This document shows, in pieces, positions 5,841 through 55,048 of a stretch of 64,000 nucleotides of DNA. The notes under the pieces are model-generated. The model searched no databases. It saw only the letters and a list, made by a program, of their open reading frames with translations, and was not told where the DNA came from. The stretch is from an uncultured Syntrophales bacterium (lineage in GTDB: Bacteria; Desulfobacterota; Syntrophia; Syntrophales; JADFWA01): positions 74-64,073 of the forward strand of contig CAYVXX010000003.1 of NCBI GenBank assembly GCA_964454305.1, written 5' to 3'. How positions within the stretch are numbered: the first letter of the stretch is position 1; every line of letters starts with the position of its first letter. Made by a program: the position numbers and the translations under genes.

Positions 5841-5980
5841 AAGAGCTTTATCGACAGACCGGAGAGTTTGTCTGATGAGATCCTTTTTATCGGGAAGGTA
5901 TTCCCTATATTTTTTGATTGAGCTTCGATCTTTTTCCTGACTCGTTTTTCCACTGCCCTTATTATGGGGAGAATTAAGAT

Positions 5981-14900: not shown

Positions 14901-15007
14901 ATGCGGCGCGCATTCGCTTCTTTCTGAGCAGTCTACACACCGATGAGCAGATTGTAACGACAATCTCGGCAATCTCCGCTGCCCTTTCTGCCGATCCGGC
15001 GTCGTAG
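5981..15007 (+). CDS. type I polyketide synthase fused to an alpha-oxoamine synthase: KS-AT-DH-cMT-(psiKR)-ER-KR-ACP-AOS
   Basis: Uninterrupted 3008-aa ORF with all domain signatures present (see domain features). No loading domain and no thioesterase. GGGGAG RBS upstream of the ATG. Confidence 0.95.
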   Translation: MISHEEVTLKDTTGHIAIVGIGCRFPGGISSPASFWDFLCSGGDGISHVPADRWDIKTFYHPDREKKGKVYTQKGGFLSEIDRFDPQFFGISPREASHMDPQQRLLLEVTWEALEDGGMVPEKLAGTNVGVFVGLFMHDYENIHTAATEHALYDPHSVTGMSTTIAANRLSYVFDFRGPSMVIDTACSSSLVAVHLACRSLREKETSLAVAGGVNVLIKPEIVMTLCQASMLSPDGYCKSFDARANGYARSEGAGVVVMKRLTDALADGDPIYAVIRGSAVNQDGRSEGITVPSGDAQKAVVQEALRTAGVAPHTVSYVEAHGTGTPVGDLIEAEALGTILSKGRSNENRCIVGSVKSNIGHTESAAGVASLIKVALMLRHHRIPPNLHFETPNPEIQFDRLKLRVPTSLETWTIEGNAPRIAGINSFGFGGTNAHVVLQEFDGPVTPDTAKSDSSKNAICLVPLSANSQEALRELARRHYEMLVSDTSGSMTLYDLGFTASLCRGHHSKRMTIAARSLEDYREHLEAFLRGERRPGLSLGSARHGTKPKIAFVFSGMGQQWWAMGRRLLEEEPVFRNIIDECDALFGRHTGEWSLIGILTADEDQSNIDETMFAQPSIFSIQVALAGLLRSRGIVPDAIVGHSVGEIAAAYTAGALTLEDAVKVCYHRSRLQHTLAGRGAMLAVGLSAEDVEKRFDVLLQDVSMAAFNSPNSVTLSGDKKTLEEIAAVLEAEKVFGRFLKVDVPYHSPSMDPVLQDLEDSLRTITPHPVSAILVSTVTGKTIDGQDMNGGYWCLNAREPILFQEAMDELVRHGCDLFVEIGAHPVLSASIMECLDSAGIKGIVVPTLRRAHDEEISIARVAGELYCSGYHLDWRERYAGEGRFIKLPTYPWQKEHYWTESEESRQARTGEGMLSVRMGVGPKAHPLLGGRLAAALPTWSASIDLEDLNYLRDHMIQGSMVFPGAGYVEMALAGARQINGYGSYVLESVSFTAPLILRGEASPIVQFVMEGDETFSVYSKSADDKQSWVKHAGGKLRPNGREETLQTISVSGIRKRCSEEIPVETFYNRFRSLGLDYGPAFRNIKTIYTGERESLGMIETNTDTDGDEKTYYLHPATLDACFQLLGVLSPGGTFLPVGIDRISTWSRPNGQIWGHARLVEQSGRRIRGDISLLDDSGNILVEIKGLRCRNIEETSAEFLDDLLYQYEWRLTPLGGGESSYRDARYLPAPGRIKAGLEPVLKEILEMYSRKEYYSVIEPKLNALCTAYIVEGMRTLGFQFGGQEPFTTEEFCSRFGIALQHGKLCERLLSMLAKEGWLSGNGREWKVGKKRKATSPQKLWNALMTEHPECQAELILIDRCGSKLVEVLRGDEDPLGLIFEPGSTVAEHLYYHSPTMRIYNRLLRELMLTVLDHLPEGQTIRILEVGAGTGAVTSFLLPILHGRQAEYVFTDISKTLINAAQEAFREYPFVEFRQLDIEKDPVEQGFDPHSFDLVIASDVVHATENLHRTLDNIKPLLASDGLVMMLELTNPSYLFDLIFGMLDGWWLFSDYDLRPDHATMPRAGWENVLTRCGFSDIVMIDDHIDDHAPTQSIIVTRGPSIEPPLTEGEIGISKETSSQTKRPWLILADESGIYQQLTVILEEKGILPSIIKRGDSFKEVAPRCFTIRPNEPDDVEQAIGALCPDGESSPVIINLWNAEPGDTVMTGQLLEDTVTNACMEVAGFVQALSKRPWETVPDFWLVTGGTHPIGSNSDIALNQTPLWGFGRVIITEHPNIRLRLVDLSRVPSERELVNFCEELLSDNSEDEIALRGSDRYVHRLVQTTGCSRPDPDDDSFTLHKTRAKSSKDFLVIEAQRHVPGPGEVELKVYATGLNFKDVAKVSGLLDDLDDDTLFSLGMEASGVILRVGEGVKNIKAGDSVMGLVQTGFSNYIVTDAYGLVPKPDHLTFEQAAGIPLTFMTAFHALHSLARIREGERILVHTGSGGLGLAMIQVARAAGAEVYATAGTPEKRSFLRTMGIPYVGDSRGLDFARELPEMTNNEGVDIVVNTLPATALEANISVLKPVSGRLIDLAAIQSPASLEMRLLGKGISIAAFDLEAMKRNTPEYLGSLLHQVADRFCDKTLHPLPHRVFPVTDVARAFRNMRKASHIGKQILSMREINVIPVPTQSTLSLNPDATYLIAGGLGGFGMAVARWMVLFGARYLVLVGRHSDSSPKVHEDLKILKKSGATVRVIQADITSEEHLKSVFEEIDLTMPPLRGVVQSAMVLDDGPVMEMTSDRIKRVVAPKVQGAWNLHILTLKKDLDFFICFSSFASLIGNANQASYSAGNAFLDALADYRKARGLPALTISWGALGETGYVAEHEEIKDAFRRQGVTGLTLDKAWQVIRHGLKRDVTHIGAMSAHWPTLSRFSYAVANSPRFSELIQREYGKAVGGVSETEDRIRTTLPASGEERHKLLEEVLIQVVSRVLGLSPSGMDIHQPLSSMGFDSLMAVELSLAVENAVGVVLPKVEYLRRDLTVAVLVKVIEKGLPESGFIVYHGGIQSRVKDQTEDTNGGAESTRFMTLGQDSSLSGGGDQRLRAEAGKREDILSKGKGNVYGFDGQSLPRAEGFIYPPEYLALKENSEQLETGGYKNFYFNISDGINSNITSIEGRKLINYSSYNYLGMSGDPVVVKAAKDAIDRYGTSVSASRIASGERIFHRELENELSGLIGAEDCIAFVSGFGTNENVIGHVCRHDDLVLHDSLIHASVQQGATLSGARVLPFPHNNYEALDRILNDRRENYRQVLIVIEGVYSMDGDIPDLPCFIEIKKHHKALLMVDEAHSIGVLGEHGRGIGEYYSVDPGEVDLWMGTLSKAFASCGGYIAGSRDMVEFLKYTAPGFVYSVGMTPPDAAAALAALRLLKKEPERVTRLQQNISLFREMAKERGFNTGKSKDSAVIPLILGQSLKSIRMYKHLKEQDIFALPIVYPAVPENAARIRFFLSSLHTDEQIVTTISAISAALSADPAS
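6020..7306 (+). other. PKS domain: ketosynthase (approximate bounds)
   Basis: IAIVGIGCRFPGG, active-site Cys in DTACSSS, EAHGTGTPVGD, KSNIGHTESAAG, GGTNAHVVLQEF. Confidence 0.95.
7627..8560 (+). other. PKS domain: acyltransferase (approximate bounds)
   Basis: FVFSGMGQQW, active-site GHSVGEIAAAY, VDVPYHSPSM. Extender specificity not assignable by eye. Confidence 0.9.
8750..9560 (+). other. PKS domain: dehydratase (approximate bounds)
   Basis: HPLLGG ... HxxxGxxxxP motif as HMIQGSMVFPGAGYVEMAL; later LHPATLDACFQ. Confidence 0.85.
9990..10760 (+). other. PKS domain: SAM-dependent C-methyltransferase (approximate bounds)
   Basis: Motif I ILEVGAGTGAVTSFLL, then DLVIASDVVHAT and GLVMMLEL. Sits between DH and ER as in cMT-containing reducing PKSs. 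Confidence 0.8.
11523..12450 (+). other. PKS domain: enoylreductase (approximate bounds)
   Basis: MDR-type ER: GEVELKVYATGLNFKDV, NADPH site LVHTGSGGLGLAMIQVARAAGAEVYATAG. Confidence 0.85.
12500..13090 (+). other. PKS domain: ketoreductase (approximate bounds)
   Basis: TYLIAGGLGGFGMAVARWM Rossmann motif; catalytic region NQASYSAGNAFLDAL. Confidence 0.85.
13330..13560 (+). other. PKS domain: acyl carrier protein (approximate bounds)
   Basis: Phosphopantetheine attachment motif LSSMGFDSLMAVELS. Confidence 0.85.
13830..14990 (+). other. PKS C-terminal domain: alpha-oxoamine synthase (class II aminotransferase; SPT/BioF/KBL family) (approximate bounds)
   Basis: SSYNYLGMSGDP, GFGTNENV, VYSMDGDIPDL, VDEAHSIG, PLP-lysine motif MGTLSKAFASCGGYIAG. 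Confidence 0.9.
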
Positions 15008-15055
15008 GGTAAGATAGGCATTATTGCAGTACATAACAATTCGGAGAATGAACGT

Positions 15056-15838
15056 ATGTCTAAGGTAGCTGTTATAACCGGAGGTTCCCAGGGCCTGGGG
15101 TTTGCACTGGCCCGTTGTCTTGCACGGGACGGCTATATTCCCGTCCTTCTTGCCCGAACAACTTATATTCTGGAGAACGCGGTTAAAAGTCTTGAAGCGA
15201 TGGGCTATCAGGCTGATTCATATGTCGTGGACATCGCAGACGAGAATGCCATGAGTACGGTGGCCGGTTCGATACGTGACAGATTCGGGACCATTGACGT
15301 TCTCGTCAACAATGCCGGGATCGTTCATACGGAGACCCTCGAAGAGATGAATATCTGTGATATCCGCTACGACCTTGAAGTGAATCTTTTCGGGACGATA
15401 CTTTGCACAAGACAGTTTCTCCCCATGTTGGCAGAGGACGGGAAGATCCTTTTTGTTTCGTCGGGATTCGGTCTTATGGGGCCGGCCGGATATTCGGTGT
15501 ACGCGGCGGCCAAAGCGGGCGTGATCAACTTTGCCGAATCAATAAAAAGAGAGCTTCACAGGCGCAACATTGGTGTGTACGTTGCCGTTCCCTCGGATAT
15601 CGATACACCTGGCTTCCGTAAGGAGCTGGAAGGATTGCCCGAGTGGATGGCCGTTTCCAAGGCCAGGGGAAAGATCCAGTCCCCCAACGCCGTAGCCCGA
15701 GCTATCCTGAAGAAATGCCGGGGAGGCCGGTTCCTTATCTTTACCGACGCTGGTGTGCGGATGCTTCACATCCTCAACAGGGTTTTACCCCGCCGATGCA
15801 GAGACCTCATCCTCGACACCATGTTTCCCAGACCGTGA
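15056..15838 (+). CDS. short-chain dehydrogenase, 3-ketodihydrosphingosine reductase (KDSR/Tsc10)-like
   Basis: VITGGSQGLGFALA, catalytic YAAAKAG. VPSDIDTPGF matches the PPDTDTPGF signature I recall for KDSR-family enzymes. GGAGAA RBS. Lies 48 nt after the PKS stop. Confidence 0.75.
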   Translation: MSKVAVITGGSQGLGFALARCLARDGYIPVLLARTTYILENAVKSLEAMGYQADSYVVDIADENAMSTVAGSIRDRFGTIDVLVNNAGIVHTETLEEMNICDIRYDLEVNLFGTILCTRQFLPMLAEDGKILFVSSGFGLMGPAGYSVYAAAKAGVINFAESIKRELHRRNIGVYVAVPSDIDTPGFRKELEGLPEWMAVSKARGKIQSPNAVARAILKKCRGGRFLIFTDAGVRMLHILNRVLPRRCRDLILDTMFPRP

Positions 15839-19506: not shown

Positions 19507-20460
19507 ATGATGAAACTCTTTAACCCCGAAATGCCGGTCGATATCGTTTACACCTGGGTGGATGGCAACAGTGAGTCATACCGGTCACTTTATAAGCGAT
19601 ATGCCAAAAAAAACGAAGATCTGAATCCTGAACGCTATCGTGATGTCTACACCATGTTGAGGTATAGCCTGAGGTCTATTGAAAAATATATCCCATGGTA
19701 TCGGAATATCTATATAATAACTCAGCGTCCCCAAGTGCCGGATTGGCTGAAACTCCCTCATCCTCAAGTCAAGGTCATTCACCATGATGAGATTTTCGAT
19801 TCAGAATACCTGCCGACGTTCAATTCAAATGTCATTGAAAGCTACATTCACCGGATTCCCGATTTATCCGATTATTTCCTCTATCTCAATGACGATTTCC
19901 TCTTCGGCAGAGAGACCTTTAAGGGTGATTTTATTACGAATGAAGGGAAAATCAATATCTTTGGGACTCTTTTCGGGGAACGTTTGAAATTCAGGGTTTA
20001 CGATACCAGGTGGAATATCTTTTCTTACGGGTTTGTCGAGCATACACCGTTGTTCATCTGTAAAAAGGCCTGGGAATTGATGTTATCTGAGCAAAAAGAA
20101 GAAGTACATAAAACCCGGCTCAACAGGTTCCGTACAGATTATGATCTCGCCATGGATAAACTTTACCGGTATTATATGCTTTCAAAAATGAGAAATTACT
20201 CCCGGGCGGTTCCTGCACTCGAAGTTTTGAAATATCATCGCTTTCATAAGATTACAAACGGTGTGACCGGACAGAAAAAAGGGATTGACAGGCTGAAAAA
20301 GATGAGGCCCAAATTCTATTGTCTCAATGATGATCAGCGTCAAAATCCTAATGAAACCGTCGTCAGGCTTGTTAAAAATTTCTTGGACGAAAACTATCCT
20401 GAGCCGTCCTCATTTGAACTGAACAGCGAGCGCATTCCCCGCTGCTTGCGGCGGGGTTAG
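19507..20460 (+). CDS. Stealth-family hexose-1-phosphoryltransferase
   Basis: Stealth conserved regions: CR1 VDIVYTWVDGNSESY, CR2 LRYSLRSIEKYIPWYRNIYIITQ, CR3 YLNDDFLFG. The last ~16 codons lie inside a repeat element. Confidence 0.85.
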   Translation: MMKLFNPEMPVDIVYTWVDGNSESYRSLYKRYAKKNEDLNPERYRDVYTMLRYSLRSIEKYIPWYRNIYIITQRPQVPDWLKLPHPQVKVIHHDEIFDSEYLPTFNSNVIESYIHRIPDLSDYFLYLNDDFLFGRETFKGDFITNEGKINIFGTLFGERLKFRVYDTRWNIFSYGFVEHTPLFICKKAWELMLSEQKEEVHKTRLNRFRTDYDLAMDKLYRYYMLSKMRNYSRAVPALEVLKYHRFHKITNGVTGQKKGIDRLKKMRPKFYCLNDDQRQNPNETVVRLVKNFLDENYPEPSSFELNSERIPRCLRRG

Positions 20461-20530
20461 CGAGCGAATAAAAACAACAATCTTCCTTACCAGTCGGAGA
20501 TTTCCCGCAACTTGTTGCGGGGAGCTTCAA
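20413..20530 (+). repeat. composite copy of an intergenic repeat family (two hairpins with CTTG loops)
   Basis: TTTGAACTGAACAGCGAGCGCATTCCCCGCTGCTTGCGGCGGGG, then TAGCGAGCGAATAAAAAC...CCTTACCAGTCGGAGATTTCCCGCAACTTGTTGCGGGGAGCTTCAA. Related copies at 41072, 44918 and 45243. Confidence 0.8.
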
Positions 20531-20568
20531 AAGTAGGCGGCCTGTTGTTCCGGGTACTCATACTACGA

Positions 20569-21270
20569 TCATTCAACTTTTTTTGATTTTTTGGGGTGCC
20601 AGTATCCTGTTTCCTTGTCCTGCCAGGCATTTTCTCCTATATACCCGAACATGTGGACGAGATATGTCTCTAACTGGTTCGGCACGAACGTGCTTTCTCC
20701 CATAAAAGTTGTCTCTGTAAGAGGGTAGACGTAATCTTTGGGAAAGGGCTTCAAATCCCCCTGAACGGTGCTCGTGATGTAACACCGCAGTCGGGAAGAC
20801 AGGTCTTCGTAAAAATAGATATCAGCTTCCCATCCTTTGTAAGACACATAGAGTTTCGGGCCGGGATGTTTGTAACTGGTATCGTACATTGAAAATCCCC
20901 GGGGCAGCCTCCGCCGGTTCTCCCAGATTTTTTTATATTCCCTTTCATGTGCCCCGAAGTCGATATCGTAATCATGGCGCATTATTTGGCCCTCTCTGTA
21001 ATACCCCAGCAGTGTTCCGAATACCAGCCAGTATTCGACGTCGAGCTCCCGTAAAAAACGGTTGGTCACCTTGAAGAGTTCTTCCAATGCTTTTAGCTTG
21101 CCGGAGTTTTTAGCGTTCCAGGGACGGGAAAAACGGGCATGACGAATTAAAAGTCGAAAATTTCTCCGTATTGCGTCAAAGGCATGCATTGTGTTATATA
21201 CTTTATTCTGACTGAGCATCAAATATCCATTATCATTTATAGTGATGAAACCGGGCAAAGTGTAGCACAA
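20569..21270 (-). CDS. LicD-family phospho(no)-headgroup transferase
   Basis: LicD nucleotidyltransferase-fold core YWLVFGTLLGYYREGQIMRHDYDIDF. Start uncertain (internal Met codons at about 21219 and 21189). Confidence 0.75.
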   Translation of the reverse strand: MCYTLPGFITINDNGYLMLSQNKVYNTMHAFDAIRRNFRLLIRHARFSRPWNAKNSGKLKALEELFKVTNRFLRELDVEYWLVFGTLLGYYREGQIMRHDYDIDFGAHEREYKKIWENRRRLPRGFSMYDTSYKHPGPKLYVSYKGWEADIYFYEDLSSRLRCYITSTVQGDLKPFPKDYVYPLTETTFMGESTFVPNQLETYLVHMFGYIGENAWQDKETGYWHPKKSKKVE

Positions 21271-21317
21271 ATAGCCGGTTAAGCAAACTCTTCATGACAA
21301 TTTTGTGGAGTATGTAA

Positions 21318-22064
21318 ATGAAGGCCATTGTCCTGGCGGCGGGTTCCGGAAATCGATTAAGCAGCGCTTTTGATGATCCCAAATGTCTTATTCCAATCGG
21401 CGGTATCCCCCTTCTCAAAAGATATCTTGAAGGCTTTTACGCAGCAGGGATAGATCAAGTCGTACTCGTCGCGGGGTACCGCATGGAAAAGATCGTCGAG
21501 TATATTAAAAACCTTTCCGTCGAGTTTCCTATGCACATCCTTATGAACAAGGATTATGAGAAAGGGAGCATCGTGTCCCTATGGACCGCGGAGGAATGGC
21601 TCTCCGGCGATATACTCTTGATGGACGGTGATCTCTATTTCGAACGGGATTTTCTGTCGAGGGCTATGACGTCCATGAAACAGAATTTCTTTCTAATTGA
21701 TTCCACTGCTCGAAACGATGGCGAGGCCGTTATGGTAGGTTTCAGGGAGGGAAGAGCTGTAAATCTTGCACGGGGGCTCTACGGTGAATTCGATCTTGTA
21801 GGAGAATGGGCCGGGGGGATAAAACTCTCCCCCGAAGGGACATCGCTTCTCAGAGACGTTGTATGCCGTCAGATAGAAGAGGGAAATACCGAAAAAGGGT
21901 ACGAATTTATCGTTCCCCAACTGTTTGATATGATAGATCTTTCATATGAGCTGATCGACGGCTGCAACTGGATTGAAATCGATTTTCCCGGTGATATGGA
22001 ACAGGCTGAAAAAATGGATCAAGGTATCAGAAAGAAGGAAAAATCTCATGACAAAAGCGCGTAA
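21318..22064 (+). CDS. LicC/PntC-like nucleotidyl(cytidylyl)transferase
   Basis: N-terminal MKAIVLAAGSGNRL ... PKCLIPIGG NTP-transferase signature. 248 aa. Overlaps the next gene by 17 nt. Confidence 0.8.
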   Translation: MKAIVLAAGSGNRLSSAFDDPKCLIPIGGIPLLKRYLEGFYAAGIDQVVLVAGYRMEKIVEYIKNLSVEFPMHILMNKDYEKGSIVSLWTAEEWLSGDILLMDGDLYFERDFLSRAMTSMKQNFFLIDSTARNDGEAVMVGFREGRAVNLARGLYGEFDLVGEWAGGIKLSPEGTSLLRDVVCRQIEEGNTEKGYEFIVPQLFDMIDLSYELIDGCNWIEIDFPGDMEQAEKMDQGIRKKEKSHDKSA

Positions 22065-23709
22065 GTTACGAGAACTGATCGGAAGCCCTCACATTACCCG
22101 TGTCGCCGGGGCGCATAATCCTCTCGGCGCAAAACTAATAGAATCGGCCGGTTTCCCGGCCATCTGGTCCAGCGGGTTGGAAATTTCGGCGGCCCAGGCC
22201 CTCCCTGATGCGAATATTCTAACGATGACGGAATTCCTGGAAGCCGCCTCATCTATGAGCGATGCCGTGGATATTCCGGTTATAGCCGATTGCGATACAG
22301 GATTCGGGAATTCAAACAATGTCATCCATATGGTTAAGAGGTACGAAAAGGCCGGAATTGCCGCTGTCTGCATTGAGGATAAGCGTTTCCCCAAGATGAA
22401 CAGCTTTATTCCGGGCCGGCAGGAACTGGCAACCATAGCGGAGTTTGTCGGAAGGATCATGGCGGCCAAAAATGCCCAGTCCGATCCCGATTTCATGGTA
22501 ATCGCCCGGATTGAGGCCTTTATCGCGGGGCAGGGAATCGAAGAGGCTTTAAAAAGAGGCCACGCGTACGCCGATGCGGGCGCAGACGCGATTCTTATTC
22601 ATTCCAAATCACAAAACCCCGATGAAATATACGAATTTGCAGCGAGATGGGACAGGGAGCTTCCGCTGGTGGCAATTCCCACGACGTACTATAACGTTAC
22701 AACCGAGGAGTTGGAGAAAGCGGGATTTGCGGTTGTTATCTATGCCAACCAGGGAATGAGGGCAGCCCTTCGTGCCATGAGGGAGACCTTTGAAGAAATA
22801 TACCGGGCGGGTACCTCACGAACCGTGGAAACGGAGATAGCCTCTCTTCAGGAGATTTTTGAAATCCAGGATATACAGGGCATGAAGGATGCCGAGAAAC
22901 TCTATATGCACACTGGAAATCAGGAGGTTGTTGCCGTTATTCCTGCTGCGGGTGACCACCTGGAAGAATATTCCATGAAGGAAATTTCTTCGGATATTCC
23001 CATAGCTGCCCTCGATATCAACGGGAAAACGCTCCTTCAAAGACAGGTTGAAACGCTTAACAAGTCCGGGATACAGGAGATTCATGTGATCGGGGGATAC
23101 AAAAAGGATCGGATAGATGCAAAGAACGTTCATCTCCTCGAAAACATTGAATATGAAAATACGGGAATGCTTCATTCCATTATGTGTGCCCGTGACTTCA
23201 TTCAGGGAAAGGTTTTCGTAGTATATGGTGATATCCTTTTCGATCGGGTTCTCCTCGAAGAACTTCTCCAGGTGGAGGAGGATATCGTGATTCTGGTTGA
23301 TCCTAATTATGACGCAAAGAAGTATGGTTCGGAAAAGAAGATTGATCTTGTTATTTCTGAAGGGAGGCCGATAAAGACAAAACGGAGATTGAGAGAGACT
23401 CCCCTAAGTAAGGTTTTAAAAATCGGACTTGACGTCAATCCTTCGGAGGCCCATTATGAATTTCCCGGCTTGATGGCACTCTCGCCGAGGGGCAGTGAAA
23501 TCGTAAAGGAAGTTTACGAATCGGCCTCAAAGCGTTATGGGGGAAAGCCGTTTCACAGCGCCCCCAATTTTGAAAGAGCCGTGTTGGCCGACCTGCTACA
23601 GGAGATTGTCAACGCCGGGCATCCTGTCGTATGTATGGAAAGTGATTCCGGATGGCTGGAGGTTCATTCAATGGATGACTACAAACTGGCCTGTTCCATG
23701 ACCAGATAA
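22048..23709 (+). CDS. pepM: phosphoenolpyruvate mutase fused to a C-terminal nucleotidyltransferase domain
   Basis: N-terminal isocitrate-lyase/PEP-mutase fold: GAHNPLGAKLIE, ADCDTGFGN, CIEDKRFPKMNSF. From about 22926: VVAVIPAAGDH ... INGKTLLQRQV ... VIGGYKKD NTP-transferase fold. Start at MTKARKL (22048) preferred over 21973. Confidence 0.9.
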   Translation: MTKARKLRELIGSPHITRVAGAHNPLGAKLIESAGFPAIWSSGLEISAAQALPDANILTMTEFLEAASSMSDAVDIPVIADCDTGFGNSNNVIHMVKRYEKAGIAAVCIEDKRFPKMNSFIPGRQELATIAEFVGRIMAAKNAQSDPDFMVIARIEAFIAGQGIEEALKRGHAYADAGADAILIHSKSQNPDEIYEFAARWDRELPLVAIPTTYYNVTTEELEKAGFAVVIYANQGMRAALRAMRETFEEIYRAGTSRTVETEIASLQEIFEIQDIQGMKDAEKLYMHTGNQEVVAVIPAAGDHLEEYSMKEISSDIPIAALDINGKTLLQRQVETLNKSGIQEIHVIGGYKKDRIDAKNVHLLENIEYENTGMLHSIMCARDFIQGKVFVVYGDILFDRVLLEELLQVEEDIVILVDPNYDAKKYGSEKKIDLVISEGRPIKTKRRLRETPLSKVLKIGLDVNPSEAHYEFPGLMALSPRGSEIVKEVYESASKRYGGKPFHSAPNFERAVLADLLQEIVNAGHPVVCMESDSGWLEVHSMDDYKLACSMTR

Positions 23710-23712
23710 GGT

Positions 23713-24210
23713 TTGACCGCTATGATTTCCCCAGATTCGTTTTGGAGCTATTTAAAAAGTAAGAATTTTACGTTTTTCTCCGGGGTTCCCTGTTCCATCC
23801 TGAAAGGCATTCTCAATGCGGCCCTCTCGGACCCGGAAATCACCTATATTCCGGCAGTACGGGAAAACGCCGCTCTCGGTGTTGCGAGCGGGGCCTATCT
23901 TGCGGGACGGAAAAGCGGCATATTGATTCAAAATTCCGGACTGGGCAACAGTATAAACGGCCTGACCTCATTCAACCTGATCTACAGGATTCCGGTTCTC
24001 ATGTTCATAACCTGGCGCGGGTATGAGGGTAAGGATGCTCCGGAACACATCATAATGGGAGAGAAGACCACAGGGCTCCTCGAGATGTTAAACATTCCGC
24101 ATGTCGTGATGAGTGAACATTTTGAGGGGGAGATCGATTGGGCCGTCCGTGAGATGGAAGAGCGATCCTTACCCGTTGCCATCATTCTGAAGAAGGGACT
24201 CATCGAATGA
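23713..24210 (+). CDS. phosphonopyruvate decarboxylase, alpha (N-terminal ThDP) subunit
   Basis: 165 aa, ThDP-enzyme PYR domain (FFSGVPCSILKG, ENAALGVASGAYLAG). TTG start at 23713, or ATG at 23722. 4-nt overlap with the beta subunit gene. Confidence 0.8.
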   Translation: MTAMISPDSFWSYLKSKNFTFFSGVPCSILKGILNAALSDPEITYIPAVRENAALGVASGAYLAGRKSGILIQNSGLGNSINGLTSFNLIYRIPVLMFITWRGYEGKDAPEHIIMGEKTTGLLEMLNIPHVVMSEHFEGEIDWAVREMEERSLPVAIILKKGLIE

Positions 24211-24764
24211 CGCGATCCGAAGCCATCAAGACAATTCTGAATGTATTGAGAGACGAGGATATTGCCCTTTTCACCACCGGCATGATCAGCCGGGAAGCCT
24301 TCGATTATAACGACAGAACGTCCAATTTTTATATGATCGGATCCATGGGACTCGTCTCATCGGTAGGTCTCGGTATCGCCTTGAATACGGATAGAAGCGT
24401 CTTCATCTTCGACGGGGACGGCAGCGCCTTAATGGATCTCGGCACCATGGCGCTCATTGCCGCCGAGCGCCCTGCCAACCTATTTCATATCGTACTGGAC
24501 AACGAGTGTTACCAATCGACGGGAAACCAGCCCACTATCGCAGAAAAGGTCGATCTCGCCGCGGTGGCGGTGGCCGCGGGGTATGCAAGCGTCTCCACGG
24601 TTTCGGATACCGGTGGATTGAAGAATGAGTTTGAAAAGGTCGACGGGATTTCGGGCCCGTATTTTTTACTTGTCAAGGTGGAAAATGGACGTCCTGAAGA
24701 TGTATCCAGAGTGGAACATACACCCGACTATTTGACCCAACGGCTGAAGGAGGTATTGGAATGA
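24207..24764 (+). CDS. phosphonopyruvate decarboxylase, beta (C-terminal ThDP) subunit
   Basis: ThDP-binding motif GSMGLVSSVGLGIAL ... DGDGSALMDLG ... NECYQSTGNQ. 4-nt overlaps on both sides. Confidence 0.8.
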   Translation: MTRSEAIKTILNVLRDEDIALFTTGMISREAFDYNDRTSNFYMIGSMGLVSSVGLGIALNTDRSVFIFDGDGSALMDLGTMALIAAERPANLFHIVLDNECYQSTGNQPTIAEKVDLAAVAVAAGYASVSTVSDTGGLKNEFEKVDGISGPYFLLVKVENGRPEDVSRVEHTPDYLTQRLKEVLE

Positions 24765-25831
24765 TCATTTTGTCACCGGGACCTGCAAATATATCGGAGC
24801 GAGTGAGGAACGCAATGCTCCTTCCCGACATATGTCACCGCGATTCCGAGTTCAGGGAACTGCTCAAGGAAATAAGAAAAAACATACTGAAAGTATGCAA
24901 CGTAGGAGATGGCTTCAAGAATGCCGTCTTCAGCGGATCGGGGACTCTGGCCGTCGAGAGTGCCCTTTCCGCATTGACCGGATGGGACAAAAAGGTTTTG
25001 ATTATATCGAACGGGGCTTACGGAGAAAGGGCCTCGGCTATCTGCAGATTGCATGGGGTACCGAACGAAGAGATGCGGCTGCCCTGGGGTGAACTTCCCG
25101 ATCTCAATAAGGTAGAGGCCGAGCTGAAAAAAGATCATTTCGGGGCTGTCTACATTGTCCATCACGAAACCACAACGGGACTGCTCAATCCTCTTCCTGA
25201 CGTTGCTGAAATTGCGCGCCGAAAGGGAAAACTGATGCTGGTCGACGGCATCAGCAGCATCGCCGGTGAAGCGCTGGACCTTGAAGGCTGGGGTATCGAT
25301 ATGATCACGGGATCGGCCAACAAATGTATCCGGGGAGTTCCCGGCGCTTCTTTTGCGGTAGTCAGCGACAGGTTCATAAAGGAGATCGAAGTGTGCCGGA
25401 ACCCTATCTTTTATGGAGATCTCTTAAAATACATCGATGCTGAGGGTAACGGCGAGACCCCCTTCACGCCCGCCGTTCAGGTCTTCTATGCCTTCAGGGA
25501 AGCCCTCAGGGAGACCCTGGAAGAGGGGATCGATAACAGGATCAAGCGGTACCGTGTCGTAGCGAAACGGCTCAGAGACGGCCTCGTATCAATCGGTCTT
25601 GAATTTTATATTCCTGAAGCGGCAATGTCCAACACGATGACAGCCGTGTACCTGCCCGACGGGTTTGATTACAAGACACTCCATGATCGCTGTAAGCAGA
25701 GGGGATATGTGATTTATCCATCCCAGGGGGATCTGGCGAGGACGACATTTCGTTTGGGAACCGTGGGGATTATTGCGGAAAGAGATATCGATAATTTCCT
25801 GGACGTTTTCCGATCGATCATTCTGCCCTGA
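24761..25831 (+). CDS. phnW: 2-aminoethylphosphonate:pyruvate aminotransferase (class V)
   Basis: Class V aminotransferase with PLP-lysine motif GSANKCIRGVPG. Position directly after Ppm/Ppd matches the canonical AEP pathway order. Confidence 0.8.
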   Translation: MIILSPGPANISERVRNAMLLPDICHRDSEFRELLKEIRKNILKVCNVGDGFKNAVFSGSGTLAVESALSALTGWDKKVLIISNGAYGERASAICRLHGVPNEEMRLPWGELPDLNKVEAELKKDHFGAVYIVHHETTTGLLNPLPDVAEIARRKGKLMLVDGISSIAGEALDLEGWGIDMITGSANKCIRGVPGASFAVVSDRFIKEIEVCRNPIFYGDLLKYIDAEGNGETPFTPAVQVFYAFREALRETLEEGIDNRIKRYRVVAKRLRDGLVSIGLEFYIPEAAMSNTMTAVYLPDGFDYKTLHDRCKQRGYVIYPSQGDLARTTFRLGTVGIIAERDIDNFLDVFRSIILP

Positions 25832-26050
25832 TATACAAGTGGCAAGAATGAAGGCTTAAAAATACTTTTTTGGAAGGTCAAAGAAACACATTACACTTAC
25901 AACTGAAGGATTTTATAAAAGTCTCGAGTTTGAGTATTACGAAAAGAAAGAGAGCGAGCGGGTGTTTGCCGGTAAATGCCTAATTATCGACCACCCATGC
26001 AGTATCAACTATCACCCGTCAGGCGAAATGCCGCATGGCTGATTCAGCAT

Positions 26051-27214
26051 TCAAGCTTGCCCATCGAAGAAGCGGATTGTATTGCGCCCGCCTTCCTTCG
26101 CTTGATACATCGCTATATCGGCCCCCTTGATGATCTCTTCCTGGCTGGCTACATGATTGATAAACAGCACCACGCCGATACTCGATGTGCAATGATGTTC
26201 CACCGTGGTTTCTGCATCCCCTTCATGTTTGCACGTTAATAAATAAGGTTCCGCCAGAACGGTGCGGATTTTTTCGGCGACAACGCCTGCATGCGCAATA
26301 GATAGTTCTTTATTCTCGTCCAACTCGCTGAGCATCACCACGAACTCATCGCCACCAAAACGTGCGACGGTGTCCATTTCACGCACACAACGGGTGATGC
26401 GATGTGCCACTTCGATTAGCAGCAAATCACCCACATCATGTCCGTGCGTATCATTGAGCGGTTTGAAGTTATCCAAATCCAGAAATATCACCGTGCCATA
26501 ACGTCCGCTGCGTTTGCTGGCGGCCATCGCCTGCCCCAGGCGGTCGTTTAGCAGGCGGCGATTGGGAAGTCGTGTCAAGGTGTCATAGAAAGCAAGGTTG
26601 CGAACCTGTTCCTCGGCTTTCTTGCGCTCGGTGATGTCCTCCGTAATGCCAATCAGTTTTTCAACGCTGTCATTACTGTTCATGATGGGAACAAAGCAGG
26701 ATTTCCAAATCTGTCCCCGCGGTCCGCTGGCTATAAATTCGAAGTGGCTGGTTTCCCCGGCATACGCTTTGGCAAGCAATTTCCCTATGCGCTCCCGGTC
26801 GGCAGCGCTGACTCCGTCCAGATATAAAGAGCCTTGTATCTCGCCTTCCCCTTTGAATCCATGCATGAGAATACCTGCCCGGCTCATGGAGATTATCCTG
26901 CCATCCATGTCTATCTCGTGAATGCTCACGGGAGAGTTTTCGAGGAGCAGGCGGTGATTATTTTCTCTTTCACGCAAGGCACGGGTGATCTTCTCGGTTT
27001 CCAGACGAGCCTCCTCCAGTTCCACGGTTCGTTGACGCACCTGATCTTCAAGAGTAACTGCGGTCTGGAACAGGTTGAAGTCCGACCCCAGAATACTTGC
27101 GTTGCGTTCGGCGCGATTCATCAATGACTGAATGATCTTGTTAAGACGTGCGATCTCGGCCTGCAAGGCCTGTTCGTTCGCGCCGGATACCGGCGGCCCC
27201 ACTTGGTCAGGCAT
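26051..27214 (-). CDS. PAS-domain diguanylate cyclase (GGDEF)
   Basis: Coiled-coil, then PAS (NSPVSIHEIDMDGRIISMS), then GGDEF with intact RFGGDEFVV. Start placed at MPDQVG (ATG 27214), which overlaps the upstream stop (GATGCCTGA). Confidence 0.85.
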   Translation of the reverse strand: MPDQVGPPVSGANEQALQAEIARLNKIIQSLMNRAERNASILGSDFNLFQTAVTLEDQVRQRTVELEEARLETEKITRALRERENNHRLLLENSPVSIHEIDMDGRIISMSRAGILMHGFKGEGEIQGSLYLDGVSAADRERIGKLLAKAYAGETSHFEFIASGPRGQIWKSCFVPIMNSNDSVEKLIGITEDITERKKAEEQVRNLAFYDTLTRLPNRRLLNDRLGQAMAASKRSGRYGTVIFLDLDNFKPLNDTHGHDVGDLLLIEVAHRITRCVREMDTVARFGGDEFVVMLSELDENKELSIAHAGVVAEKIRTVLAEPYLLTCKHEGDAETTVEHHCTSSIGVVLFINHVASQEEIIKGADIAMYQAKEGGRNTIRFFDGQA

Positions 27215-28365
27215 CGCGCGGTTCCCTCGTTGATTCTGGGGCAGAGCCGATGGCAATCCCGGTGAGAGTCTGGTTGACATGTACACCGTGGAACTGTTCG
27301 CCGTAGGTGCTAAAACCTACGGTGTTGTTGCGACTAAAAATCTCCCCGACGCGATCTTTCAAACCATTCTGGGAAACTTCCAGATTCCGCAGGATGCAGT
27401 CGCAGCCAATAACGAGTTGGGGCGGCCCGATTTCCTCCCGGATTTTGTCGAAAGTCTGCTCCAGGTTCTCCATCAGATCCACGCCATGCGCCACCCTGAA
27501 CACCACCCCCTCCTCGATGGCGCAAAAGAAAGTCAGGCTGCCATCGGCATTCGCTTTCTGGATAGAACGCACATAGTCCGTGCCATCTATCATCACCACG
27601 ACGGGCGAAGTGGCGAAACGCTGGGGACTGAGCTCATGCATGCCAACACCCACCAGCCGGGCATACTCTCCGGCAGCGGGCAGTCCATTGATCTCCTTGA
27701 CGATGCGTCTGGTGGGATCGGCTTCCGTAACCACCAGACGTTTATCGGTGGGAACAAAATGCTGGGTCTTGAATATCCTGAAAGGCAAGGACGTGCTAAT
27801 CAGAATCAGTACGGCACTATCGGAACGAAAGCGGCCATCGCTATAAACACAGGTTTTGGCAAATTTCAGGTCGTCACCCGCCGAACCGCGGTATCTTGCC
27901 CAACGCATGCTGCAACGCATGCGCCACCGGCTCTTCACGAATGGACAAACCATCAATCAGCAGCAGTGCGAAGCTCTTATCCGGGCTTGCATCCGGGGCT
28001 TTGCTTTCAAGTCGCTGTAACAGGGCTTGGGCAAAATCATTCCCTCTGGCGATTTCGAATTGGCTCAAACGATCCAGCAGTCCACTGACGGCCACGCAAC
28101 TGCCCTTAGGGAAGCTCACTCCGGACAGGCTATGCTGATAATAACCGGCTGGCCCGATTTCCCCGGCCGTGGTGCATCCCACCACTTGAATCCCGGCAAA
28201 CAGGCGGTTAATTTCCGCAGCCAGCGCATCGAGGTCGTATTCGCTGGAGCAAAAGAAGATCACCAGTTCCATGTTCGGCTGCGCCACCGCTGCATGAAAT
28301 TCCTCTGCCACCTGGCGAGCCTCCGTTGCACACGATTGCGCCATGCGAATATTCAGAATGCTCAT
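27207..28365 (-). pseudogene. FIST-domain sensor protein, interrupted by a 1-nt frameshift
   Basis: ORF 27874-28365 (FIST_N-like) ends ...ALGKIPRFGG*. ORF 27207-27956 continues in another frame with ...GSAGDDLKFAKTCVY... (FIST core) and FIST_C. The frames join if one nt in CCGCGG (27886-27891) is removed. Confidence 0.6.
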
Positions 28366-29794: not shown

Positions 29795-31606
29795 CTATAA
29801 TTTCTCGGAGGCAAGTTCCTCAAGGACACTTATGAGCTTTTCGTTGTCCAGACCGCTTCGAGATGCGATACGCACATAGTTCTTTCCGGAGAGGCCGGTC
29901 TTATTGCTGCAGTCTTTTATCAGGATAGCGTGGTCCATAAAAAGCCGGTCTCTGAGACTTCTGCCGGTGAATGGTTCTGAAACTTTTGCAAAGACATAGT
30001 TTGCCGAAGGCCGGTATGGTTTCAAAAAAGAAATCTTTTCTAATTTCTTGTACAGTTCGTCCCGGTCACGCCTTATGAGGTCACACGACTCCCGATAATC
30101 CTTCTCGAACTTTGGCATTGCTTCAAGAAATTGTTCCGCCAGGGAATTGATGTTCCATATGGGAACCGTGTCCCGAAGCCGTCTGATGATTTGTGGATTT
30201 GAGCAGAGCGCGTATCCGAGCCGTAGGCCGGGAACCCCGAACTCCTTACTAATGCTTCGAACCAGGATGACATTCGGATAACGATCTATTGCCTGGTGTG
30301 CCGAATACTTTTTCTCGGGAGCGACAAAGTCCATGAATGATTCATCGATGATAAGGCAGGCCTTATCCTTCAGTTTTTCGAGGATGAACTCCATCTCTTT
30401 CTCCTCGACAGAGAGGGACGTCGGATTGTTGGGGTTGATTATAAGGGCCGCGTCGGAGCCCGATTGTATCACGGCGTTTACATACCTTTCGGGATCGAGA
30501 CGAAAACCGTCCCTTTCCGTGTCGAAATAATTGATCTGTTCCGGCCTGAGCGTGTTCTCGTACTCGTTGAATGTCGGAATGGGGATTGTTATTTTTTTTA
30601 CAAAATGATTGTTCAGGGCTCTTATAATTTCCGAGGCGCCGTTACCGGCAACCAGCTGGTCGGCCTTGAGCGTAAGCGCCCGGGCAATGAGCTGGGTGAT
30701 TTTAGTCATACCGCTGGGATAGTTCCGGATCAGGAGCGGGAAGGCCGATGTGAGCATGTTCATCAGGGCAGGGGAGGGATAATAGGGGTTGTAGAGATAG
30801 CAAAAATCGAGAAAATCGTACCGCCAGAATCCGCCGTGGAGTTGATCTATCTGTTCCAGTTTCTTCTCTTTTGATGAAAGGTGGTAACTTGCGCGGGCAA
30901 GGTCGGACTCGTCATCGATTTCAAACCACTTGATCCCGTCGACGACGGTACCGTAAATTTCAGGCTTCCCGTAATAGATCAGTGCGCCGAGAATAATCTC
31001 ATAGTATTCGGTGATTGATTGGGTTTTCACGTAGAGATCGAGGTGGGGCACAAAATATCTTTGCAGGAATTCTTTCGAGAAATAGTAAACATTTACGGTC
31101 TTGTATTTATCGGAGAAGTCGAAACCGGGGTGTTGATCGCGCGACGGGATCAGCCGTCGAATGATATTATCCGGCGACATTTCGACGACCGTTCCATCCA
31201 TGTGAGGTTGAAACCTGTCGAGGAGTACCGTGCACGACTCTCTTTCACTCAAAAGCTTATCGATCAGGGTTCCCTCGAAGTAGACATCGCTTTCGAGGAG
31301 GATCGTATCACGGTTCAAATGGTCTTTTGCAAACCAGAGCGAATAGACGTTATTAGTGGTATTGTATTCGAGATTTTCCACATACGATATCCTCATCTTT
31401 CCGAAACGATCGCCGACCGTTTCGTATACCTTTTCCCTCAGGTATCCGACAATCAGAATCGTCTCTTCAATACCGTAACTTTCGAGGATTTCCAGGGTAT
31501 TGACAAGAATTGGCTTGCCGTTTACCTCGACCAGGCACTTTGGAACAAAGTCGGTGAGCGGACGGAGCCGCTTCCCGATTCCGGCGGCAAGGATCACAGC
31601 TTGCAT
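29795..31606 (-). CDS. fusion protein: nucleotidyltransferase (N) + class I/II PLP enzyme of HisC/CobD type (C)
   Basis: N-terminus MQAVILAAGIGKRLRPLTDFVPKCLVEVNGKPIL. C-terminal ~330 aa has PLP-lysine motif VRSISKEFGVPGLRLGYA and NPNNPT. ATG at 31606 preferred over the TTG at 31642. Confidence 0.75.
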   Translation of the reverse strand: MQAVILAAGIGKRLRPLTDFVPKCLVEVNGKPILVNTLEILESYGIEETILIVGYLREKVYETVGDRFGKMRISYVENLEYNTTNNVYSLWFAKDHLNRDTILLESDVYFEGTLIDKLLSERESCTVLLDRFQPHMDGTVVEMSPDNIIRRLIPSRDQHPGFDFSDKYKTVNVYYFSKEFLQRYFVPHLDLYVKTQSITEYYEIILGALIYYGKPEIYGTVVDGIKWFEIDDESDLARASYHLSSKEKKLEQIDQLHGGFWRYDFLDFCYLYNPYYPSPALMNMLTSAFPLLIRNYPSGMTKITQLIARALTLKADQLVAGNGASEIIRALNNHFVKKITIPIPTFNEYENTLRPEQINYFDTERDGFRLDPERYVNAVIQSGSDAALIINPNNPTSLSVEEKEMEFILEKLKDKACLIIDESFMDFVAPEKKYSAHQAIDRYPNVILVRSISKEFGVPGLRLGYALCSNPQIIRRLRDTVPIWNINSLAEQFLEAMPKFEKDYRESCDLIRRDRDELYKKLEKISFLKPYRPSANYVFAKVSEPFTGRSLRDRLFMDHAILIKDCSNKTGLSGKNYVRIASRSGLDNEKLISVLEELASEKL

Positions 31607-31813
31607 GAGAGTTTGCCCTTTCTTTTTAAGATATGTCGTCAATATCCCGCTCAGATGGCTTTGTTTCGCCGGGTGATGCCGGGATATTTTTCGAACTCTT
31701 TCCGGTGCTGAAAGTTTTTACCCGTTATGTAGTTCTTGATATGCCTGGTGATGTATAGTAATCTCCAACATCGAATACCGAATTAAATTTTAACATATCA
31801 TATCTGCTGCCCT

Positions 31814-34027: not shown

Positions 34028-34918
34028 GTGAAGACATTGATCCATTGCTGGAGAGAGCTTAAGCCCGTTGACCGTGCGCTGATTTCTTTTTTTCTCGTTC
34101 TTAACGGGTTGATCGTAATTTTTCACGGCAATCTGCCCCGCTGGCCCTGGCACCTAACAAAACACTTTCTTATCTGTTTTCTTATTCTGGTTTTGGTTCC
34201 ACTCATCCAGTCGCGAAAGACCCGATGTGCCCATTTTACCCGCCAGTGGTATCCCGTCGTTTCGATCCCGTTTATCTACTGGAATATGGCGTATTTTATA
34301 CACCTGGTCTTCCCCGGCGAATTCGATCCGCTGATAATTTCAGCGGAAACAGCCATTTTCGGCGTGCTGCCGAATATCCCTGTGCAGAAACTGGTCACGC
34401 CGGTTCTTACGGAAGTTATGCAGGTGTTCTATGCCACATACTGGTTTATGATACCGTCCGGTGCGGCGCTTCTCTATTTCGGCAATCGCGAGGATACATA
34501 TGATTCGTATCTCTATTACATGACGTTGACTTTTTTTGCTTCGTGCCTTGTATTTATTCTGTTTCCCGTTGCCGGCCCCCGATTTTTCATTGTTGACCAG
34601 ATTTTAGCGGAATACCGTGGACTCTTCATAACCGGATTCCTTCGCCGGTTCGTGGAGGATGCAGGCCTGCGGGGATGTGCATTTCCAAGCGCACACGTTG
34701 CCGTTGCCGTGGTAGTCATGAGCTTTGTCCGGATTGAGTACCCCCGGCTTGCCGGACGGGTCTTCCTGCCCCTTGTCGTGGGGCTTTCACTTGCAACGAT
34801 CTACGGGCAATACCATTATCTGACCGATGTAGCGGCGGGACTTGCTTTGGGTGTTGTCGTCAGCATGATCGGGGTAAGGAATGTACGGAAGATGTTACAA
34901 AGAGATGAAAAAGGGTGA
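34028..34918 (+). CDS. PAP2-superfamily polytopic membrane protein, sphingomyelin/IPC-synthase-like
   Basis: Multiple TM helices. PAP2 C2 motif FPSAHVAV and C3 motif YGQYHYLTDVAAGLALG (H-Y-x-x-D-V as in SMS/AUR1-type phosphosphingolipid synthases). GTG start. Confidence 0.6.
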   Translation: MKTLIHCWRELKPVDRALISFFLVLNGLIVIFHGNLPRWPWHLTKHFLICFLILVLVPLIQSRKTRCAHFTRQWYPVVSIPFIYWNMAYFIHLVFPGEFDPLIISAETAIFGVLPNIPVQKLVTPVLTEVMQVFYATYWFMIPSGAALLYFGNREDTYDSYLYYMTLTFFASCLVFILFPVAGPRFFIVDQILAEYRGLFITGFLRRFVEDAGLRGCAFPSAHVAVAVVVMSFVRIEYPRLAGRVFLPLVVGLSLATIYGQYHYLTDVAAGLALGVVVSMIGVRNVRKMLQRDEKG

Positions 34919-36069: not shown

Positions 36070-36073
36070 ACGC

Positions 36074-42307: not shown

Positions 42308-42403
42308 AGTGTACTGTTCTCCGGCTGAAAGCGAAACCTGCCTGTTATTGATGCCTTGTGGGGACAGACTGAAAGGCTTTTTTCAAACATATTTTCATGG
42401 AAG

Positions 42404-43285: not shown

Positions 43286-43321
43286 TTATCACGTCCCAGA
43301 TACATGTTTTTTAAGGTTATT

Positions 43322-49035: not shown

Positions 49036-49069
49036 CTGTCAAGGTACAGCTTAAACAGGGGGAATAACC

Positions 49070-54774: not shown

Positions 54775-55048
54775 ATTCCCTGCTTCTGTACCTATGTTTT
54801 GAAAGCTTTGAAAACATAAATTTTCAGCTTTTCAAAGGTCTAGTTTTATAGGCACAATAAATACAATTAGAGGATATTATTTCTTGTTAATCTCAATATA
54901 CACCATATCGGAAAGTGTCAATAGAAATGAGATGCTTTATTGTATCACATAATCGCCTTTATTAGGTGATGGTCTATTAATCCAGGCTGTTTTTAGCAAT
55001 GCCTTCGGTTTAAGTGTTTTCCCTTTGAACAGTAATTCTGAATAGGGG

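Follow-up and report, generated by a model that had tools for sequence, protein, structure and literature searches.

The window analysed here, a stretch of 64,000 nucleotides from an uncultured Syntrophales bacterium, carries on its forward strand a translationally coupled operon of five genes (21318–25831) that is predicted to make and activate 2-aminoethylphosphonate (AEP). The prolyl-tRNA synthetase of the source falls into one cluster, at ≥90% identity, with a protein from a Syntrophales metagenome-assembled genome. The first gene (21318–22064) encodes a stand-alone nucleotidyltransferase (NT) of 248 aa, similar to PntC and LicC (PF12804, E 2e-13), which we call NT1. Its end overlaps by 17 nt (22048–22064) with the second gene, which starts with the ATG at 22048, ends at 23709 and encodes a fusion protein of 553 aa (TIGR02320 and PF12804). 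Residues 1–295 of the fusion (22048–22929) form a phosphoenolpyruvate (PEP) mutase domain (Ppm; TIGR02320), and the C-terminal 260 residues (22930–23709) form an NT-like domain (PF12804, E 2.7e-13). The third and fourth genes encode a phosphonopyruvate decarboxylase (Ppd) in two parts: an N-terminal, pyrimidine-binding subunit for thiamine diphosphate (ThDP), PpdA (23713 or 23722 to 24210; PF02776, TIGR03297), and a C-terminal, ThDP diphosphate-binding subunit, PpdB (24207–24764; PF02775, TIGR03297). The last gene (24761–25831) encodes a class V AEP aminotransferase of the AepZ/PhnW type (AEPT; TIGR03301, PF00266) with the SANKC lysine motif. ATGA overlaps join the genes at 24207 and 24761. 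Divergent from NT1, on the reverse strand, lies a LicD-family gene (PF04991) with an open reading frame at 20569–21270; the gene caller places its start at 21189, which gives a protein of 206 aa (20569–21189). The original prediction had described this overlapping-gene operon, the NTP-transferase domain at the C-terminus of the mutase, the second LicC-like NT directly upstream and the divergent LicD, and profile searches together with reading of the sequence recovered every one of these elements. Judged by its gene content, the operon is a standard phosphonyl-tailoring (Pnt) cassette that would combine AEP synthesis with activation by CTP. As a sequence finding the core operon is ordinary; its island context is interesting.

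By homology at or near the equivalog level, the complete route from PEP through phosphonopyruvate and phosphonoacetaldehyde to AEP appears to be encoded, and the Pfam and NCBIfam E-values of the operon genes are far beyond chance. The Ppm domain scores 333.4 bits against the TIGR02320 PEP_mutase model, above the cutoff of 319.55, and it matches the structure PDB 5UNC (E 1e-111). The motif EDKxxxxxNS discriminates Ppm within the isocitrate-lyase superfamily (PMC6697681). It is present in the window as EDKRFPKMNS within CIEDKRFPKMNSF; phosphonopyruvate hydrolase has T where the Ppm motif has N (2DUA alignment). The Mg and catalytic positions of the Mytilus Ppm (1M1B) are likewise kept, in ADCDTGFGN, EDK, KMNS, ARIEA and IHSK, so that the other possibility raised with the original prediction, a mutase-like domain without catalytic residues from a different isocitrate-lyase-family enzyme, finds no support. 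TIGR03297 is the top match of both Ppd halves (136 and 193 bits), and the summed scores exceed its cutoff of 312.5, adding scores over two polypeptides being an approximation. The sulfopyruvate decarboxylase models (ComD/ComE) stay under their cutoffs. AEPT reaches 348.3 bits against TIGR03301, under the cutoff of 360.8, with full-length coverage (residues 2–352); its operon context supports the assignment. A promoter and terminator scan of 20300–26300 gave counts not above those of shuffled sequence, and searching the complete window against Rfam and for tRNAs gave no matches.

The two NT modules of the operon differ in their catalytic residues. Separate NT enzymes of the PntC type make CMP-AEP and carry the catalytic signature GXG(T/S)RX4-8PK (PMC6697681). 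The substitutions R15A and K25A each reduce the PntC of Treponema denticola (Tde-PntC) to <10% of wild-type activity, and mutation of the equivalent Lys in FrbH and YgbP abolishes cytidylyltransferase activity (PMC6697681). In NT1 (AAGSGNRLSSAFDDPK) the signature takes the form G9-S-G-N-R13...P21-K22, with Asn instead of Thr/Ser; both catalytic residues are present, Arg13 and Lys22 aligning to R15 and K25 of Tde-PntC. The top PDB match of NT1 is Tde1415 PntC (6PD1; E 1e-10, residues 2–232), followed by inositol-1-phosphate cytidylyltransferase (IPCT) and LicC, and at 45 bits the kinship with Tde-PntC is distant. Glu104 of Tde-PntC is replaced by Asp in NT1 and Glu196 is retained, neither being diagnostic of the substrate. 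Among stand-alone homologues of NT1, 65 of 72 show the full signature and the other 7 retain R...PK. From the homology to Tde-PntC, the intact signature and the conservation of the operon described below, we strongly infer that NT1 is the CMP-AEP synthase.

The Ppm-fused domain (AAGDHLEEYSMKEISSDIPI) reads AAGDHLEE...IPI in the corresponding region, which is invariant in 26 homologues of 53–71% identity, including G302, H304, L305, E307 and P318. An hhalign comparison of the fused-domain family with the NT1 family gives a probability of 100% (E 1e-51, 222 columns). In this alignment Ser faces Arg13 of NT1, Ile faces Lys22, and three residues are inserted after AAG; the GXG(T/S)RX4-8PK signature is thus absent. 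In the 163 related Ppm-NT loci that we collected, both residues are missing from 84 fused domains, PK only is found in 58 and both are kept in 16 (regular-expression matches in BLAST-anchored segments). Because both signature residues, Arg and Lys, are lost in this clade, the fused domain is probably a diverged PntC paralogue and not a CMP-AEP synthase. Its strong conservation argues against simple decay, and its putative role could be regulation, scaffolding or non-canonical catalysis. Loss of the signature from the fused domain does not predict a stand-alone NT1, which is present in 24/30 loci with both residues lost, 12/24 with PK only and 7/7 with both kept. A literature search found no test of a Ppm-fused NT domain. 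The pattern of one NT that keeps the catalytic signature and a Ppm-fused one that has lost it in many lineages may be a clue to the frequency of two-NT clusters.

Sixty-five of the 163 loci are well flanked, with ≥5 kb on both sides of the Ppm-NT gene. A separate NT1 homologue occurs in 45 of them by BLAST and in 47 by HMM search. Fusion to a nucleotidyltransferase domain is reported for about 60% of true PEP mutases and fusion to PF12804 for 33%, and the clusters of T. denticola, Olsenella uli and Atopobium rimae combine a Ppm-fused NT, a separate NT and LicD-like or glycosyl transferases (Rice et al. 2019, PMC6697681). Two NT modules are therefore the commonest arrangement, not an unusual one as had been proposed, and the further suggestion that two modules stand for two activated head groups is at odds with a fused domain without the Arg/Lys signature. 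The lipid head-group enzyme CDP-alcohol phosphotransferase is encoded in 33 of the well-flanked loci (51%) and LicD in only one. These neighbourhoods give a rough answer to the question, raised with the original prediction, of whether this Ppm belongs with lipid- or glycan-associated clades: they are of the lipid type. The proposal that activation to CMP-AEP is followed by LicD transfer is supported in part. The route, the PntC-like NT and the nearby LicD follow the published logic (PMC6697681), whereas LicD is an atypical partner of Ppm-NT.

The five-gene unit of NT1, Ppm-NT, PpdA, PpdB and AEPT recurs in the three closest relatives at 51–76% identity, each time with the NT1 orthologue first; identity of the Ppm domain to that of the window is 76% in L169, 73% in L170 and 67% in L004. 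In L004 the operon lies directly beside a gene for a PAP2_3 membrane protein that is 51% identical to the one at 34028–34918 of the window. In L169 it adjoins an epimerase 74% identical to that at 40051–41028, followed by UDP-glucose dehydrogenase (UGDH). The neighbours of the AEP operon thus vary between loci, all being drawn from one island (LicD, PAP2_3, epimerase/UGDH), and Ppm genes are repeatedly attached to this glycolipid island at varying positions. The idea that the operon is an insertion absent from relatives had to be softened: Ppm is found elsewhere in the island in L169 and L173, and several contigs of relatives break off just where the comparison matters.

More distant loci link Ppm to genes for sphingoid-type lipids. 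Seven loci from metagenome-assembled genomes (MAGs) of Acidobacteriota were examined (L059, L060, L064, L067, L142, L152 and L053), several of them on truncated contigs and two of them annotated with Pfam. These two, L059 and L067, encode in order a ligase of the AMP-binding, FAAL type, a stand-alone oxoamine synthase (AONS), a GNAT homologue of ~373 aa, PAP2_3, Ppm-NT, Ppd, AEPT and PntC. The AONS is 32% identical to the C-terminal domain of a polyketide synthase (PKS) in the window (E 9e-60), and the GNAT homologue is 31% identical over its full length to the product of 4701–5840 (E 2e-62). In the other five loci, BLAST and HMM searches recovered parts of this gene set. PAP2_3 lies ahead of Ppm-NT in 7/7 loci, and the GNAT homologue is present in 6/7. 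We regard this compact cluster as a candidate phosphonosphingolipid gene cluster. It spans 1564–14566 in L059 and 3979–13633 in L067, with an amine-oxidase-like gene at its head. A locus from Gemmatimonadota (L029) encodes GNAT, a FAAL-AONS fusion, a CDP-alcohol transferase, Ppm-NT and AEPT. In two distant phyla, phosphonate synthesis is thereby connected with lipid genes of the oxoamine-synthase (sphingoid) type. In a literature search we found no description of Ppm together with Spt, GNAT or PAP2 genes, or of the Acidobacteriota cluster; an earlier description may exist.

The island around the AEP operon extends over ~50 kb of the window. It contains LicD, Stealth, GT4 and NodZ-like glycosyltransferases, PAP2_3, genes for inositol-phosphate lipids, a GNAT and a PKS-oxoamine synthase, a flippase-like protein of the LPG-synthase type and a tripartite exporter of the DevBCA/MacAB type. 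LicD scores 42.4 bits against PF04991 (cutoff 22.6), over profile positions 3–55 of 227 only. Its segment GTLLGYYREGQIMRHDYDIDFG carries the GxLLGxxR...DxDxD motif of LicD/fukutin-type enzymes and aligns to FKRP (6KAJ, E 2e-5), which makes it a candidate transferase of a phospho- or phosphono-head group from a CMP or CDP donor to a sugar or lipid hydroxyl. A Stealth-family (hexose-1-phosphoryl) transferase with the domains CR1–CR4 is encoded next to it on the forward strand (19507–20460), and the same adjacency is seen in L171 (72% identity) and in contig P0126.

Homologues of LicD with 63–67% identity stand in the same island context in L167, L171, L173 and P0126. L167 reads epimerase, UGDH, LPG_synthase_TM, two FtsX, PAP2_3 (88%), GT4 (85%), NodZ-like, CHGN and LicD, where the contig ends. 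The order in P0126 is ABC exporter, Stealth, LicD, GT2, outer-membrane efflux protein (OEP), MIPS (myo-inositol-1-phosphate synthase), CDP-alcohol transferase, CdsA, HlyD-like and ABC-cNMP. L171 shows GT4, an NT/CobD-like fusion (72%), NodZ-like, an NT1 orthologue (62%) divergent from LicD (67%), and Stealth, so that the divergent NT1–LicD pair is found in two genomes, the window's and this one. In L173, PAP2_3, GT4, NodZ-like, CHGN and LicD are followed by a convergent Ppm-NT operon (5180–8512, reverse strand), which encodes a partial Ppm-NT fusion with EDKxxxxxNS (CIEDKVFPKTNSF), a separate NT and a CobD-like aminotransferase/decarboxylase dependent on pyridoxal phosphate (PLP). In L168 (1–3500, forward strand) a fusion of GT2 and a sulfatase domain (961 aa) overlaps the start of a LicD homologue, with GT4, GT92, PAP2_3, an acyl carrier protein (ACP) and a ketosynthase (KS) nearby.

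The PAP2_3 gene of the window (34028–34918, forward strand) encodes a membrane transferase similar to AUR1 and sphingomyelin synthase (PF14378, 66 bits against a cutoff of 27). The top PDB match of its profile is the yeast AUR1 inositol phosphorylceramide synthase, a weak match (E 0.003) spanning 214 positions. The protein carries the FPSxH and HYxxD motifs, and the His-His-Asp set H223, H263 and D267 is invariant across 5 homologues. It is a candidate lipid head-group transferase, and is linked to AEP genes in the relatives described above.

A candidate scaffold for a sphingoid-type lipid may be encoded on the forward strand at the left of the island. A GNAT-like acyltransferase of 379 aa (4701–5840, Pfam) precedes a single-module PKS megasynthase of 3008 aa (5981–15007), whose Pfam domain order is KS-AT-DH-MT-ER-KR-ACP-AONS; a generic FabG-like short-chain dehydrogenase/reductase (SDR; 15056–15838, profile match) follows. 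The AONS domain matches the BioF, Kbl and Spt models and stays under all of their equivalog cutoffs; its homologues are mostly stand-alone, ACP-fused or FAAL-fused enzymes from many phyla. The arrangement GNAT-PKS-AONS-SDR (4701–15838) resembles a megasynthase route to a methyl-branched sphingoid-type amino-ketone. An ACP and an AMP-binding ligase are also encoded in the window.

Two further gene groups of the island concern lipids and export. On the reverse strand at 53662–55675, MIPS stands next to a CDP-alcohol phosphatidyltransferase similar to phosphatidylinositol phosphate (PIP) synthase, a pair also found by LicD/Stealth in P0126; its predicted role is inositol phospholipid synthesis inside the island. 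Also on the reverse strand (34930–37201 and 41138–44896) are two permeases of the FtsX/MacB type, a fusion of an ABC ATPase with a cyclic-nucleotide-binding domain (ABC-cNMP), a HlyD adaptor and an OEP, whose families point to a tripartite exporter like DevBCA/MacAB. P0126 has retained the ABC-cNMP fusion.

The window contains a third NT module, at 29795–31642 on the reverse strand, where an NT (PF00483/PF12804) is fused to a CobD-like PLP decarboxylase (PF00155) in a protein of 603–615 aa. Against TIGR01140 the fusion scores 189 bits, under the cutoff. Its NT part matches LicC (1JYK, E 9e-19), and its decarboxylase part matches PDB 6OUX (E 5e-45), an entry titled "threonine phosphate decarboxylase-like enzyme". 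Fused or split homologues occur beside LicD in L171 and L173. Should the island use two activated head groups, this fusion is the better candidate source of the second, which might be CDP-ethanolamine or else an analogue with a phosphonate.

Taken together, we hold with moderate confidence that the Pnt cassette works through CMP-AEP made by NT1 and that the island product is a surface glycolipid or sphingoid-type lipid bearing AEP. The Ppm domain would convert PEP to phosphonopyruvate, forming the C-P bond, and the two-subunit ThDP decarboxylase would turn this into phosphonoacetaldehyde, pulling the unfavourable equilibrium forward. The class V aminotransferase would then yield AEP, which NT1, encoded by the first gene and coupled to ppm, would join with CTP to give CMP-AEP. 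The island would use CMP-AEP through LicD for a sugar hydroxyl and through PAP2_3 for a lipid hydroxyl, and the product would leave through the tripartite pump. Attachment by LicD and/or PAP2_3 and export by the pump are tentative suggestions. A lipid or glycolipid destination is favoured because Ppm/AEP genes and island lipid genes are linked in relatives, including those from Acidobacteriota. The phosphonolipid or phosphonoglycolipid of the original prediction is therefore the favoured type of product on comparative genomics, and is unproven.

Several points weigh against the AEP-lipid interpretation, which is drawn from sequence. A preference of NT1 for AEP is unreadable from its sequence, the published determinants being steric pocket volume, and in L171 the NT1–LicD pair stands in a 7.4-kb contig with no visible Ppm. 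The steadiest supply-gene partners of LicD are an NT and a CobD-like decarboxylase, which may point to a phosphate rather than a phosphonate head group. To our knowledge, PAP2_3 enzymes of known function use phospholipid donors and not CMP donors, so the PAP2_3 route would need either a new specificity for the donor or a CMP-AEP:diacylglycerol step as yet unseen; no CMP-AEP:diacylglycerol transferase is encoded beside the AEP operon. At most, the GNAT is a putative homologue of bacterial ceramide synthase, and a GGDEF/FIST regulatory block lies between the AEP operon and the remainder of the island.

The partner genes of LicD may point to another division of labour, in which LicD does not use CMP-AEP. 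Its donor would be a CDP-amino-alcohol phosphate, such as CDP-ethanolamine, supplied by the NT/CobD-like fusion, and AEP would be installed by PAP2_3 or by an unlinked CDP-alcohol phosphotransferase. The NT and CobD-like pair, fused or split, accompanies LicD in the window, L171 and L173, the parts of the fusion are closest to 6OUX and LicC, LicD is nearly absent from the other Ppm-NT neighbourhoods (1/65), and in L004 it is PAP2_3 alone that flanks the AEP operon. Three observations speak for a link between LicD and AEP instead: the window and L171 share the divergent NT1–LicD arrangement, AEP operons begin with NT1 orthologues, and in L173 the NT and CobD-like genes share an operon with the Ppm-NT fusion and may therefore be phosphonate enzymes of the FrbH type too. 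We consider this division possible and on balance doubtful. The roles of the two NT modules of the operon might also be exchanged, the Ppm-fused domain being the real AEP cytidylyltransferase through non-canonical residues (such as the invariant His304 or the conserved Lys of an SMK motif) and NT1 activating another head group such as inositol-1-phosphate. The whole-length conservation of the fused domain, with invariant His, Glu and Gly, indicates a selected function, IPCTs are the second-best PDB and top NCBIfam matches of NT1, and MIPS is encoded in the window. Against this exchange, the Arg and Lys needed in Tde-PntC, FrbH and YgbP are both replaced in the fused domain, and NT1 accompanies Ppm in 45–47 of the 65 loci without MIPS. 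NT1 as an IPCT was itself rejected as an assignment: its 77 bits fall far short of the model's cutoff of 580, and its top PDB match is Tde-PntC. We judge the exchange of roles to be improbable.

Other explanations concern the destination of AEP. LicD could move AEP from CMP-AEP onto a capsular, exopolysaccharide or lipopolysaccharide-type polysaccharide, the PKS and lipid genes being unrelated neighbours; the like has been proposed for PS B of Bacteroides fragilis and for the Treponema, Olsenella and Atopobium clusters. LicD, Stealth, several glycosyltransferases, UGDH and the epimerase are typical polysaccharide genes, and published PntC clusters are glycan-associated. However, an initiating phosphoglycosyltransferase, Wzx/Wzy and Wzm/Wzt-type systems and undecaprenyl-phosphate polysaccharide machinery were not found in the 64 kb, which encode FtsX/MacB-type permeases, HlyD, OEP and the flippase-like LPG_synthase_TM protein instead. 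The PAP2_3, GNAT and AONS modules moreover recur beside Ppm in other phyla, and half of the related well-flanked loci carry the CDP-alcohol phosphotransferase, which together make a phosphonoglycan unlikely. It is very improbable indeed that the operon has nothing to do with the cell surface, whether as the source of a free or secreted small-molecule phosphonate or as a locus of AEP catabolism. AEP aminotransferases of the PhnW type act in catabolism too, and AEPT scores slightly under the TIGR03301 cutoff; on the other side, Ppm and Ppd are biosynthetic, genes for PhnX, PhnA or C-P lyase are absent, the activating NT and its LicD/PAP2_3 neighbours point to conjugation, and the usual tailoring enzymes of phosphonate antibiotics are missing. 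A more specific version of the AEP-lipid interpretation would have the cassette feed an undescribed bacterial phosphono-sphingoid lipid or glycolipid, with a long-chain amino-alcohol base built by AONS (as part of the megasynthase in the window, as a stand-alone enzyme with FAAL in Acidobacteriota), N-acylation by a dedicated GNAT-like enzyme of 375 aa, attachment of AEP by PAP2_3 with or without LicD, and a non-catalytic or regulatory fused NT. We put this version forward only tentatively, as rather unlikely in all its parts; if true, the Acidobacteriota cluster would be the first genetic blueprint for head-group attachment in a bacterial phosphonosphingolipid.

The closest known systems are the Pnt clusters of T. 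denticola, O. uli and A. rimae, which are alike in the Ppm-PF12804 fusion, the separate PntC, Ppd, the AEP transaminase, a nearby LicD-like transferase and the CMP-AEP intermediate (PMC6697681). They differ in that PntC is fused to the transaminase in Tde1415, whereas in the window it is stand-alone and encoded first, in that Ppd is split into two subunits in the window, and in their surroundings, which are Gram-positive or spirochaete glycan genes there and a lipid/glycolipid island here. The 'Burkholderiales_CDP-OH' Group 1 phosphonolipid family, whose product is predicted and uncharacterised, shares the AEP core, two PntCs (one of them Ppm-fused) and head-group genes of the phospholipid type (Li & Horsman 2022, PMC8942020). 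In contrast to that family, the operon of the window lacks both a neighbouring CDP-alcohol phosphotransferase and an alpha-ketoglutarate dioxygenase for 1-hydroxy-AEP; its candidate transferases are LicD and the AUR1-like PAP2_3.

The sphingophosphonolipids of Bacteriovorax (Bdellovibrio) stolpii and the ceramide-AEP of marine invertebrates may resemble the product in type, a sphingoid-type lipid that carries AEP. An oxoamine synthase, a GNAT similar to N-acyltransferases and AEP genes come together in the window and in the Acidobacteriota loci, which are known from genes alone; in the window the long-chain base would come from the PKS-AONS megasynthase. By description, the cluster of B. stolpii is set apart as a member of another gene cluster family, GCF 761. 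With the yeast AUR1/sphingomyelin synthase family (PF14378) the PAP2_3 of the window shares FPSxH and HYxxD, although the match is very distant, and given MIPS and PIP synthase its true function could instead be inositol-phosphoryl transfer. FrbH of FR-900098 biosynthesis, which joins an NT to a PLP decarboxylase acting on a phosphonate amino acid, has the same two-domain architecture as the product of 29795–31642, and the split version co-operonic with the Ppm-NT fusion in L173 would be a split FrbH-like phosphonate route beside a glycolipid island. The decarboxylase in the window differs from FrbH in being closest to 6OUX, so a phosphate substrate is at least as likely as a phosphonate.

For roughly half of bacterial phosphonate gene clusters the proposed role is decoration of the cell surface. 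In the literature consulted here the steps after CTP activation are called enigmatic, and predicted phosphonolipids are uncharacterised. The locus and its relatives offer two candidates for the step after activation, LicD and the AUR1-like PAP2_3.

Some features of the window lie outside these subjects. The regulatory block between the AEP operon and the NodZ-like glycosyltransferase consists of reverse-strand genes: a FIST sensor (FIST_N/FIST_C) spread over two overlapping open reading frames (27207–27956 and 27874–28365), which is either a frameshift or a genuine split, lies upstream of a PAS-GGDEF diguanylate cyclase (26051–27286). On the forward strand at 47611–51631, a Slam-like outer-membrane protein (PF04575 and TPR_Slam) is encoded beside an 853-aa protein with FecR and a beta-barrel of the TbpB/fHbp type, by their families a surface-lipoprotein export pair, which one would not expect in a Syntrophales MAG. 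A beta-propeller phytase and a multihaem cytochrome c are encoded side by side at the window's left edge (1422–4198, reverse strand).

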